The notes beneath the pieces are model-generated. The model was not told where the DNA came from and did no database searches. It saw only the letters and a program-made list of their open reading frames with translations. This document shows, one piece after another, positions 6,338 through 8,604 of a stretch of 20,464 bases of DNA. Origin of the DNA: a virus. Its lineage: Duplodnaviria > Heunggongvirae > Uroviricota > Caudoviricetes. The stretch spans positions 1 to 20,464 of IMG/VR virus record IMGVR_UViG_2667527839_000003; one strand, written 5' to 3'. A program made the position numbers and the translations under genes. Numbering within the stretch: the first letter of the stretch is position 1; every line of letters starts with the position of its first letter.

Positions 6338-8604
6338 TATCTCGGTCCTGCGGGGAGTTGCTGGGTTAACTGTGAGTTCACACCCTTTTGACGGTCAACA
6401 GTCAAACGGGCAGCCTCGCGCGGATCGGAAACGCCGTGGATGTTAATATTCGTTTCCTGCTGAATCACCGGGGCGCTGGTGGGCATATTGCTCATCACTT
6501 TCGGAATGTAGTTACGCGTTTCCTGCGGCATTAGCCCCATGCCATAACGCTTAACATTCCCGATCCCCCAGTTATATGATGCCAGTGCTTTGCTAAGGTC
6601 TCCGCCGTTCTGCCGCAACAGCTGGCTAAGGTACTTAGCGGCTGCCTGAGCTGACTTTTCCGGATCGAACACATCGTTACCACGCAGGCCCATATCGCGC
6701 GCCGTGCCATCCATAAACTGGAACAACCCCTTTGCACCTGCGCCGGACGTGGCGAATTGATTACCCCCCGACTCAGTGATCGCCACGCTTTTCAACAAGC
6801 CAGCAGGCAGCTGATAAAGAGACTCCAGCTTATTGAACATTGGCCCCATCCAGTCGAGCAATACTTTGCCCTGGGCTGTGGCCTGTGGACGTTTGACTGA
6901 TTGCGCAAACTGGGAGGGGTCACCCGATATATTTGGAGAGATTTCAGCAGCTCCAGCCGGGGAGAAAAATAAATTACCGATTTTGGCAATCCCGTCTGAG
7001 ATTTTTTCAAGATAACCATTAGCAGCCTGCTGACGGTTTTTTATTTCATCTCTTTCATGCGGGGCAATTTCATTACTACGAACATGCTGTTCCGCCCCGG
7101 GAATGTCAGGCTGAACATTATCGCCATAAACGACGCCATTGCTTTGCGCCTGACGAATAATCTTACCTGGGCCACCATGCAGCCAATCCATCCATGCGGG
7201 CCATTCTCTTACCTCGCTAACATCTTTTCGCCCAAGGTCGGTTTTGATGCCAACCGTAGCAAGAGCATCACCAATGTTCCTTTTGGTATAGTCCAAAGAT
7301 GATTTAGCACTGGCTTTTATGTTTTCACGATCTGAAACCAGGTAACCAGCATACGCTCCCCATAATTTAAGCCATGGAGGTATCGGAAGACCGGATATTT
7401 TTGCGAATGCTCCCAATACTTTTGTTACCCATACCCCAGCGATGAAAGTAGCCAAAATTTCCAGCGAGTTCTGCCATCCACCAACAGAATCTTTCAGCCC
7501 CAGAAGCTTATCGCGCAGCCAGAGAATTGCCTTTTTCGCCTTTTCTATTGCAGGCTCCCACTTGGACCAGTCAATCAGGCTTTTACCGCCTTCTTTCCAC
7601 GTCTGATAATCGTCATAGAGTAATCCGATCGCCAGAATCAGCGTGGTGATAATTCCAATCGGGGATTTCAGGAACGCAGAATTAAGCAGACGCCATGCGA
7701 CAAGTAGAGCACCGAATATTTTCAGCAGATTTTTACTGCCATCGTCAAGACGCTTCCACCAGTCAATGACAGAGCCAGCGCCCTGTATGAGCCGCCACGC
7801 CATTCGCGTGAAGGCGTTCGCAAGCCAGATCACGCCTTTAATAACTCTGGTCAGCGTCTCTTCAATCTTCGGGAAGTTGTCGAGGATGCGCCGCCGCAGG
7901 CTGTCCAGCGAACCAGCAAGACCACCAGCGAGGTTTGAGCCGATCTTGTCCCGCATAATGCCGAACAGCGACGTAAGCCCGCGCATGGACGTCATGAATT
8001 TATTGGACTGCACAGCCGCCTTATCAGCGTTGAACCCAGTCTTTTGCAGCATAGACTGGTAATCGGCGGTAAAGCCATTCATGCCGCGCCGCATCGCCAT
8101 CAGCGTGTTTTCATCGATGCCAAGCATCTGCGCGTATTGCTTCGCGCGGTAATACGGCATGTTGTTGAGCTTTTGCCCAACGCCAGTAAAGATGGCCGCA
8201 GTATCACGCATCTTTCCGCTGGCATCTCGGGTCTGGACACCAAGACGGTTCAGGAAGCCTTCCGCGCCCGGATTGCTACGCATGAAACCGGCCAGCCCTT
8301 CGAGGGAGGACATAGCCGACTCGGCGCTGGCACCGGTTTGCGATGCGGCATAGCCCAGCGCTTTGATGCCCTGGACGCTGGCCCCCGTCCGCTGGGATGC
8401 CCAGTAAATTTTATCCAGACCATTCGCGATCTGGGTGGTAAATCCGACAATGCTAAGCGCTGCGCCTTCCACCACCGCGCCGACCTTCAGAACGTTTGCG
8501 GTAACGCCTTTCAGCACGGCTTCAAACTTATTAGCGCCAGCCTGATCGATATCGAATCCCAGCGAAACAAGGAAATCTTTAATCGTATCTGCGTTACCGC
8601 TCAT
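6337..8604 (-). CDS. Tail tape measure protein with C-terminal lytic transglycosylase (SLT) domain
   Basis: 755-aa ORF after the chaperone gene. Mostly helical-looking N-terminal/central part with hydrophobic segments (IGIITTLILAIGLLY, ILATFIAGVWVTKVLGAF). C-terminal region carries family-1 lytic transglycosylase motifs: ITESGGN (catalytic E-S), GLFQFM, and ASYNWG (AYNAG-like). Confidence 0.8.
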   Translation of the reverse strand: MSGNADTIKDFLVSLGFDIDQAGANKFEAVLKGVTANVLKVGAVVEGAALSIVGFTTQIANGLDKIYWASQRTGASVQGIKALGYAASQTGASAESAMSSLEGLAGFMRSNPGAEGFLNRLGVQTRDASGKMRDTAAIFTGVGQKLNNMPYYRAKQYAQMLGIDENTLMAMRRGMNGFTADYQSMLQKTGFNADKAAVQSNKFMTSMRGLTSLFGIMRDKIGSNLAGGLAGSLDSLRRRILDNFPKIEETLTRVIKGVIWLANAFTRMAWRLIQGAGSVIDWWKRLDDGSKNLLKIFGALLVAWRLLNSAFLKSPIGIITTLILAIGLLYDDYQTWKEGGKSLIDWSKWEPAIEKAKKAILWLRDKLLGLKDSVGGWQNSLEILATFIAGVWVTKVLGAFAKISGLPIPPWLKLWGAYAGYLVSDRENIKASAKSSLDYTKRNIGDALATVGIKTDLGRKDVSEVREWPAWMDWLHGGPGKIIRQAQSNGVVYGDNVQPDIPGAEQHVRSNEIAPHERDEIKNRQQAANGYLEKISDGIAKIGNLFFSPAGAAEISPNISGDPSQFAQSVKRPQATAQGKVLLDWMGPMFNKLESLYQLPAGLLKSVAITESGGNQFATSGAGAKGLFQFMDGTARDMGLRGNDVFDPEKSAQAAAKYLSQLLRQNGGDLSKALASYNWGIGNVKRYGMGLMPQETRNYIPKVMSNMPTSAPVIQQETNINIHGVSDPREAARLTVDRQKGVNSQLTQQLPAGPR

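Follow-up and report, generated by a model that had tools for sequence, protein, structure and literature searches.

Muralytic motifs in gp16 of phage T7 and in the tape measure protein (TMP) of mycobacteriophage TM4 help entry under demanding conditions. In experiments, the peptidoglycan-cleaving motifs embedded in the TMPs of TM4 and of phage T5 (Pb2) promoted infection or proved muralytic (PMC1796659; PMC6116005). Among contractile-tailed phages, the TMP of P1, termed Sit, has an SLT domain at approximately residues 750-900 of 1140 (PMC9024508), and gp41 of Pa193 contains a putative transglycosylase at residues 491-582 together with C-terminal helices on the tail tip (PMC11456595). Structures of Pa193 and P7-1 show the C-terminal helices of the TMP attached to the spike (PMC11456595, PMC13338283). 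The Salmonella phage SEN34 is contractile-tailed by electron microscopy, and the tails of four myophages in the same paper range from 107.3 to 148.9 nm (PMC5261728). A muralytic module of another type, the Enc34 endolysin domain, has been found to be active by experiment (PMC8943055).

We examined a 20,464-nt stretch of Caudoviricetes DNA (IMG/VR record IMGVR_UViG_2667527839_000003, positions 1-20,464; hereafter the window), in which all of the features described below lie on the minus strand. An intact gene (6337..8604) encodes a protein of 755 residues that matches PHROG 2276, 'tail length tape measure protein', over its full length (residues 1-754, E=5e-220). The gene directly follows that of the tail assembly chaperone (8782..9207; PF21822 Phage_TAC_15, E=4e-33; PHROG 1688) and directly precedes the genes for a Dit-like protein, plug, hub and spike. 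Reading of the chaperone sequence reveals a slippery heptamer, A_AAT_TTT (8836..8830), and a 79-codon extension in the -1 frame (8594..8836 with the heptamer) that ends at 8596..8594, within the start of the TMP gene. Frameshifting at this heptamer is predicted, and the chaperone homologue of phage Mulock carries an annotated frameshift product.

The TMP gene is 98.6% identical in nucleotide sequence to E. coli prophage genes of equal length, including that for WP_106505108.1, which is annotated as 'transglycosylase SLT domain-containing protein'. PGAP already applies an SLT-domain label to every one of the 41 related prophage genes of E. coli. The same gene is present in SEN34, where the product (67.6% amino acid identity) is annotated as a tail tape measure protein, and in Hafnia phage yong1. 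The sole difference among these TMPs resides in the middle of the protein (residues ~360-560), which is mosaic among relatives. Because codon differences from the E. coli homologue L003 comprise 30 synonymous and 2 non-synonymous changes, the gene is, by this comparison, under purifying selection.

The preliminary description of this DNA had identified the 755-residue protein as a TMP, had assigned a lytic transglycosylase domain to its C-terminal part, and had listed the motifs ITESGGN, GLFQFM and ASYNWG in that order. The first assignment is borne out by the PHROG 2276 match and by the position of the gene between a chaperone with a predicted -1 frameshift and the baseplate genes, and the other two by the data that follow. 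Pfam SLT (PF01464) matches residues 589-689 (6538-6840) with E=6e-25, scoring 87.5 bits where the gathering cut-off is 21.3, which is far beyond chance. The profile, AlphaFold2 and Foldseek together place the family-1 lytic transglycosylase (SLT/GH23) domain at residues ~576-705 (6490..6879); the span 6480-6850 originally singled out encodes residues 585-709. Motif I, ITESGGN, is located at residues 609-615 (6760-6780), motif II, GLFQFM, at residues 626-631 (6712-6729), and motif III, ASYNWG, at residues 675-680 (6565-6582). Motif IV, the downstream tyrosine, corresponds to Y699 in PQETRNYIPK, which is aligned to PQETQDYVPK of MltD (8rhe).

The predicted catalytic residue is Glu611 of the ITES motif (codon at 6772..6774). 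Counting along the printed alignments, E611-S612 are aligned to E478-S479 of Slt70 and to E37-S38 of T7 gp16, and GLFQ (G626-Q629) is aligned with GLMQ of Pa193 gp41, Slt70 and T7 gp16. A sequence search of the PDB with the TMP returned Pa193 gp41, MltD, T7 gp16 and Slt70, with the catalytic glutamate aligned. In an alignment of 44 homologues that reach down to ~31% identity, E611, G626, Q629, Y677, N678, G680 and Y699 are invariant and S612 is conserved in at least 90%. The homologue search returned mostly partial, short proteins, which are fit for an alignment of the domain and poor for a survey of architectures.

Predicted structure leads to the same assignment. In the AlphaFold2 model of the C-terminal fragment (overall pLDDT of 87), fragment residues 21-150 are modelled with pLDDT of 96-98, and this confidently folded part corresponds to residues ~576-705 of the TMP. 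When the model was compared with the PDB by Foldseek, 57 matches were obtained at E<=0.001, and the best 50 of these are all lytic transglycosylases; the top matches are MltD (8rhe, rmsd 2.4), Slt70 (1qte, rmsd 1.8), MltE, MltF, MltC and T7 gp16. The modelled domain thus has the lysozyme-like all-alpha fold. Considering the sequence evidence as a whole, we assign a probability of about 0.85 to the reading that the 755-residue protein is the TMP of a contractile-tailed E. coli prophage and that it carries, ~50 residues before its C-terminus, an SLT domain predicted to be catalytically competent through Glu611.

The genes that encode the tail tip were screened for other muralytic functions. The membrane-puncturing spike (246 residues; 2791..3531) consists of a PF18352 N-terminal domain, a P2 V-like C-terminal part and an Apex motif, and its matches in the PDB sequence search are P7-1 tail tip gp86 (E=1.4e-14), Pa193 gp44, E217 gp43 and Pam3 gp20. 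The baseplate hub (353 residues; 4345..5406) matches PHROG 196 (E=3e-84) and Pam3 hub gp19 (E=1.5e-8). Searches of Pfam, PHROG and NCBIfam found no T4 gp5-type lysozyme or other muralytic domain in spike or hub, and profile searches gave no hydrolase family for the hub, the Dit-like protein or the plug. A weak match of the Dit-like protein to PHROG 1517 'endolysin' (E=7e-7) raised the possibility of a further muralytic activity, which was rejected because the protein has no Pfam or NCBIfam hydrolase domain. Within the window, the SLT domain of the TMP is the only virion muralytic domain found. Two small secreted proteins encoded between hub and spike were also screened as lysozyme or lytic transglycosylase inhibitors or as defence proteins, and nothing was found in Pfam, NCBIfam or PADLOC.

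Homologues of the spike, hub and sheath are found among the parts of Pa193, P7-1, E217 and Pam3, and by this homology the contractile tail is a member of the XM1/Pam3/E217/Pa193 myophage lineage. The preliminary view that the spike lacks a lysozyme domain is in agreement with these searches. It had also been proposed that an SLT domain on the TMP is a known but not universal strategy, and that it is unusual for a contractile tail, a point that needs softening given the same arrangement in P1 Sit (PMC9024508), Pa193 gp41 (PMC11456595) and SEN34 (PMC5261728).

Comparison with the closest phage, Omnitron (~95% nucleotide identity over 81% of the window), provides information about how the domain is exchanged. 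The conserved N-terminal body of the TMP (residues 1-360; 7525..8604) has 78% amino acid identity with the TMP of Omnitron and 61-63% with those of vB_EcoM-689R2 and Mulock. At the position occupied by the SLT domain here, all three of these TMPs carry an Enc34-type glycosidase domain (PHA02564). Past this replacement, similarity to Omnitron picks up again in both protein and DNA exactly at residues 714-755. The alternative NNPGN module of the Omnitron-type TMPs matches the Enc34 endolysin domain (PDB 7q47, E=1e-13) and retains the catalytic glutamate (HENG). It was identified only by PHROGs and the PDB sequence search, and Pfam gave nothing for it at E<=10. The PHA02564 domain has no detectable sequence similarity to SLT, and the activity proposed for it is that of a glycosidase (N-acetylglucosaminidase), not of a lytic transglycosylase.

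Because Omnitron replaces SLT with PHA02564 but shares the N-terminal part and the final 42 residues of the TMP, the predicted muralytic part is a swappable cassette set between a conserved body and a predicted 42-residue anchor. This exchange supports a role for the cassette in breaching the wall at entry. The partial megablast match among phage records, which covers the N-terminal 23% of the TMP and is found with Omnitron only, might be taken for divergence but in fact reflects cassette and mosaic replacement. In other prophages of E. coli and Klebsiella, the SLT cassette is also found on unrelated TMP bodies.

A different account of the domain is that it is a catalytically inert remnant, which either has the purely structural task of filling space or plugging the tail tip or acts as an anchor that binds peptidoglycan and does not cleave it. 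We consider this improbable, even though an SLT domain would have to be packed into a narrow tube and certain phages can do without their muralytic modules (PMC1796659), since the family-1 catalytic and substrate-binding motifs are conserved throughout the 44 homologues, the SLT fold is predicted at high pLDDT, and the module substituted in Omnitron belongs to another muralytic family that is experimentally active (PMC8943055) and keeps its catalytic glutamate. Conservation of the motifs and the exchange of one muralytic module for another therefore fit selection for enzyme function rather than for shape. Still less probable is the notion that the open reading frame is not a length-determining tape measure and instead specifies a distinct protein at the TMP position that is ejected, be it a 'lytic tail protein' or an internal virion protein. 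The C-terminal part does match PHROG 2013 'lytic tail protein' and T7-like internal virion protein families, and the Pfam TMP model PhageMin_Tail gives only 20 bits at residues 37-158, below its cut-off of 33.2. However, the match to PHROG 2276 spans the entire protein, the SEN34 homologue is annotated as a TMP, and this is the sole long open reading frame between the chaperone, with its predicted frameshift, and the baseplate genes, in a tail module that offers no other TMP candidate.

It is similarly very unlikely that the SLT domain acts late, either in host lysis or in tail assembly across the wall, and not at entry. Endolysins and the assembly of flagella and secretion systems also employ SLT domains; moreover, the best NCBIfam match of the TMP is a flagellar assembly lytic transglycosylase, and some SLT homologues include a FlgJ-type rod-binding domain. 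Nevertheless, the domain forms part of a structural protein of the virion, which lacks a signal peptide and is synthesized in the cytoplasm, the site of tail assembly. In addition, the right end of the window adjoins a lambdoid lysis-region gene, and the lysis genes therefore probably lie elsewhere.

We return to the reading of the protein as a TMP with an entry enzyme, for which other parts of the sequence suggest how it might operate. Two hydrophobic segments were located by Kyte-Doolittle analysis, one at residues ~293-333 (7606..7728; 19-residue windows above 1.5 starting at residues 306-312), which is a candidate for membrane insertion, and another at residues ~381-403 (7396..7464; windows above 1.5 starting at residues 381-383); both would have a membrane role. 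The conserved C-terminal tail (residues 714-755; IQQETNINIHGVSDPREAARLTVDRQKGVNSQLTQQ...; 6340..6465) is a predicted spike anchor or 'cork', with a helix predicted by AlphaFold2 at moderate confidence at residues ~728-749. From the conservation of these 42 residues and by analogy with the Pa193 and P7-1 structures (PMC11456595, PMC13338283), the C-terminus would be expected to dock on the spike. Assuming ~1.5 A per helical residue, the predicted length of the tail is at most ~113 nm from 755 residues and ~84 nm from residues 1-560.

From these features we infer the virion location, membrane role and enzymatic activity of the TMP and the following order of events. In the virion, the TMP would reside within the tube lumen. 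Contraction of the sheath would drive the spike through the outer membrane, and once the spike departs the TMP would leave C-terminus first into the periplasm. The SLT domain would then fold or become exposed and open the murein sacculus by local, non-hydrolytic cleavage of MurNAc-GlcNAc linkages to yield 1,6-anhydroMurNAc, after which the hydrophobic segments might reach the inner membrane and help to build a conduit for DNA. Three (or six) folded copies of a domain of ~130 residues seem too bulky to lie abreast in a lumen of ~4 nm, so that within the virion the domain would have to be unfolded, stacked or staggered. As T7 and TM4 do not need their comparable muralytic domains under standard conditions, the contribution of the SLT domain to infectivity may, by analogy, be small.

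Nearly identical tails that alternate two unrelated muralytic cassettes at one TMP site constitute a natural experiment on the contribution of such enzymes to entry. One speculative possibility, which we regard as unlikely, is that the swap is adaptive and evades host factors that block one chemistry, such that the cassette would be a determinant of host range or condition range. Peptidoglycan O-acetylation blocks lytic transglycosylases. If the swap is adaptive, the factors evaded could include this modification as well as periplasmic inhibitors of lytic transglycosylases or lysozymes. More generally, the prophage is predicted to breach murein with an enzyme built into its TMP and not with a T4-style spike lysozyme. 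This confirms routine annotation, and it should help both in annotating the widespread enterobacterial prophages of the SEN34 type and in the search for virion-associated lysins.

The SLT domain of this TMP is confirmed as real, but it had already been annotated and counterparts have already been described in other contractile-tailed phages. The best PDB sequence match is gp41, the TMP of the PB1-like myophage Pa193 (PDB 9b45; E ~5e-10). The match runs over the SLT domain, where TES, GLMQ and Y-x-G are aligned, and the spike, sheath and hub of the two phages are homologous. The N-terminal bodies of the two TMPs have no significant similarity, ~275 residues follow the SLT domain in gp41 whereas only ~50 do so here, and transglycosylase activity is putative in both. 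P1 Sit likewise places an SLT domain inside the TMP of a contractile-tailed phage of E. coli, but by description P1 has T4-like tail parts, and Sit is much longer and holds the domain further from its C-terminus. Diffocin, a contractile system, was considered as a further case of a lytic transglycosylase carried by the TMP and was set aside, as the paper places the enzyme on the hub. The SLT domain of T7 gp16 is homologous (E ~1.6e-7; E37 aligned with E611), and this internal core (ejectosome) protein is also ejected into the periplasm through a narrow channel; however, it belongs to the capsid core of a podovirus and is no tail ruler, and its SLT domain is N-terminal. Finally, the TMPs of TM4 and T5 differ in that they are from siphoviruses and use other catalytic families, namely motif 3 of TM4 and the muralytic domain of T5 Pb2.

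The tape measure protein (TMP) of this phage carries a family-1 lytic transglycosylase (SLT) domain, as the preliminary description had proposed. Translation of the ORF at 6337..8604 on the minus strand yields 755 aa, and the three signature motifs lie where they had been placed: ITESGGN (aa 609-615, nt 6760-6780), GLFQFM (aa 626-631, nt 6712-6729) and ASYNWG (aa 675-680, nt 6565-6582). The span originally described, nt 6480-6850, corresponds to aa 585-709. The Pfam SLT profile (PF01464) matches aa 589-689 far beyond chance (E=6e-25), with 87.5 bits for a gathering score of 21.3. 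Sequence matches to solved structures include the Pa193 TMP gp41, Pseudomonas aeruginosa MltD, T7 gp16, Escherichia coli Slt70 and P. aeruginosa Slt. By residue count in the printed alignments, E611 lies opposite Slt70 E478 and T7 gp16 E37, the catalytic residues of those enzymes. Across 44 aligned homologues, reaching down to ~31% identity, no variation occurs at E611, G626, Q629, Y677, N678, G680 or Y699, and conservation of S612 is 90% or higher; together these residues make up the four family-1 motifs.

The predicted fold agrees with this assignment. In an AlphaFold2 model covering aa 556-755, mean pLDDT is 87, with values of 96-98 across aa 576-705. Comparison of the modelled C-terminal part with the PDB by Foldseek gave 57 matches with E<=0.001, the best 50 of which are lytic transglycosylases throughout. 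The rmsd was 2.4 Å for MltD and 1.8 Å for Slt70, and other matches were Slt, MltE, MltF, MltC, LtgA, T7 gp16 and phiKZ gp144. Between the TMP gene and one E. coli homologue there are 30 synonymous and two non-synonymous codon differences, none of them in the SLT region, and the gene is under purifying selection.

Family and gene neighbours support the identification of the carrier as the TMP. PHROG 2276 (‘tail length tape measure protein’) covers aa 1-754 with E=5e-220, and two hydrophobic stretches (aa ~293-333 and ~381-403) lie upstream of the enzyme domain. The single weak point is the Pfam PhageMin_Tail match, which falls below threshold. Upstream, the tail assembly chaperone gene (PF21822, 8782..9207) contains an A_AAT_TTT slippery heptamer at 8836..8830 on the minus strand. 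A -1 shift there is predicted to add a 79-codon extension ending at a stop at 8596..8594, inside the TMP start, giving a 204 aa product whose extension occupies an apparent 177-nt gap (8594-8836 including the heptamer). A chaperone with such an extension before the TMP would be the classical G/GT arrangement, and the homologue in phage Mulock is annotated with a frameshift product of this kind. In E. coli, the sole PGAP annotation at the extension site is a tiny ‘DUF6889’ ORF.

Every long ORF of the window belongs to the virion module, and all lie on the minus strand. Head genes (small and large terminase, portal, head morphogenesis, scaffold/protease-like, cement and major capsid proteins) are followed by adaptor and terminator proteins, the sheath (DUF3383, 9662..11152), the tube (KPP10_Orf10, 9211..9651), the chaperone and the TMP. 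Then come a Dit-like baseplate protein (5711-6337), a plug resembling Pam3 gp18, the hub (4345..5406), a pair of small secreted proteins (3991-4341, 116 aa, and 3585-3971, 128 aa), the spike (2791..3531) and, beyond it, a gpW-like protein, Baseplate_J and DUF2612. The sheath has 496 aa, compared with ~381-386 aa in an otherwise related prophage of E. coli, L003, and in phages vB_EcoM-689R2 and Mulock and ~493 aa in Klebsiella prophages. The sheath thus comes in two forms, short and long, the latter having ~110 aa more as an additional domain. Mechanically called ORFs overlap by ~130-150 nt at 16755-16906 (portal/head-morphogenesis) and 12994-13127 (DUF4054/STY1053-family gene). As the downstream genes of both pairs begin later in an annotated E. 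coli relative, the longest-ORF starts, including TTG at 13127, are probably wrong.

The DNA is that of an E. coli prophage. Its TMP gene is found at full length, with 97-98.6% identity, chromosomally in 11 complete E. coli genomes, related TMP copies occur in 41 E. coli genomes, and in strain EH09-18-41 the element adjoins tonB/yciI. Citrobacter phage Omnitron shows ~95% identity over about 81% of the window; further relatives are Hafnia phage yong1 and Salmonella phage SEN34, whose contractile tail has been seen by electron microscopy (PMC5261728). The last 70 bases (20395-20464) match at 97% the small gene hkbM / DUF2560, known from lambdoid phages, both P22-like ones and others (for example CUS-3). 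This match suggests that a myovirus-type structural module adjoins a lambdoid-type region, as noted for SEN34.

The observation that the spike lacks a lysozyme domain also held. This 246-aa protein comprises a PF18352 N-terminal domain, a P2 V-like part and an Apex motif and nothing more, the hub matches hub families alone, and searches of these and the remaining ORFs against Pfam, PHROG and NCBIfam found no hydrolase match elsewhere in the window beyond one doubtful label. The Dit-like protein weakly matches PHROG 1517 ‘endolysin’ (E=7e-7); as neither Pfam nor NCBIfam finds a hydrolase domain in it, this label is probably misleading. The two small ORFs between hub and spike, which lie within the baseplate operon, encode Sec-type signal peptides; one is a member of PHROG 3443 (unknown function), and for the other no family was found in Pfam, NCBIfam or PADLOC. 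Because two hypothetical genes of other sizes occupy this interval in L003, the pair look like exchangeable morons.

Whereas the TMP studied here has the SLT domain, Omnitron and the other closest relatives have an Enc34-type PHA02564 domain in its place. The Omnitron TMP (667 aa; L004 1501-3504) is 78% identical to ours across aa 1-360, differs thereafter, and becomes similar again from IQQET (aa 714) onward. The region exchanged is aa 361-713 (nt 6466-7524), followed by 42 conserved residues. The TMPs of vB_EcoM-689R2 (aa 4-519, 63% identity) and Mulock (aa 4-370, 61%) likewise share an N-terminal part and then diverge; the corresponding spans in the close relatives' sequences L001 and L002 are 2998-4983 and 2998-4914. 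The replacement module of the three phages has an NNPGN motif and a conserved Glu, in the context HENG in Omnitron and vB_EcoM-689R2 and KEG in Mulock. Pfam gives no match for it; among PDB entries it resembles 7q47 (E=1e-13) and, at the N-terminus of the latter, 9vvp Gp29 (E=1e-20). The Enc34-type enzyme (7q47) is active on Gram-negative peptidoglycan and has its catalytic Glu in the corresponding HENG (PMC8943055). Some E. coli prophages (H109-H112) share only the last 450 nt, SLT plus tail end, and Klebsiella prophages with a different TMP body carry a related SLT within the same tail type. With SLT replaced by the Enc34-type domain between a conserved N-terminal body and the last 42 residues, also conserved, the muralytic part is a swappable cassette. 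That one muralytic family replaces another at the same site, with ruler and anchor flanks conserved, is good comparative evidence that selection acts on enzymatic cleavage of the wall.

These results confirm the SLT domain on the TMP and support the interpretation first given to it. In the most likely mechanism, the TMP would line the lumen of the tube and dock on the spike through its C-terminal helix (aa ~728-749). Sheath contraction would drive the spike through the outer membrane, so that spike and TMP C-terminus would be the first to exit. The SLT domain, ~50 residues from the C-terminus, would then fold or become exposed in the periplasm and cut glycan strands locally, and the hydrophobic segments would next reach the inner membrane and help to form the DNA channel. 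Three or six copies of a ~130-residue domain would somehow have to fit into the lumen.

Matches of the spike (P7-1 tail tip gp86, Pa193 gp44, E217 gp43, Pam3 gp20), hub (Pam3 gp19) and sheath (7kh1 gp6, the Pam3 sheath, Pa193 gp32) place this tail in the ‘simple baseplate’ myophage lineage. In P7-1, a three-helix TMP cork sits on the spike coiled coil (PMC13338283). Experimental support for TMP-borne muralytic motifs comes from the siphoviruses TM4 and T5 (PMC1796659, PMC6116005). Myophage TMPs bearing a lytic transglycosylase are not new: such a domain is described for P1 and, as a putative one, for Pa193, and in PGAP every one of the 41 E. coli homologues already has a name referring to an SLT or lytic transglycosylase domain. 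Only the cassette exchange goes modestly beyond this known feature. P1 Sit, like the TMP described here, is a myophage TMP carrying an SLT domain (PMC9024508). Pa193, whose spike and sheath are homologous to those of this phage, likewise has a putative transglycosylase in its TMP (aa 491-582); there the TMP C-terminal helices bind the tail tip, and the TMP has been proposed to be ejected and then refolded in the periplasm (PMC11456595).
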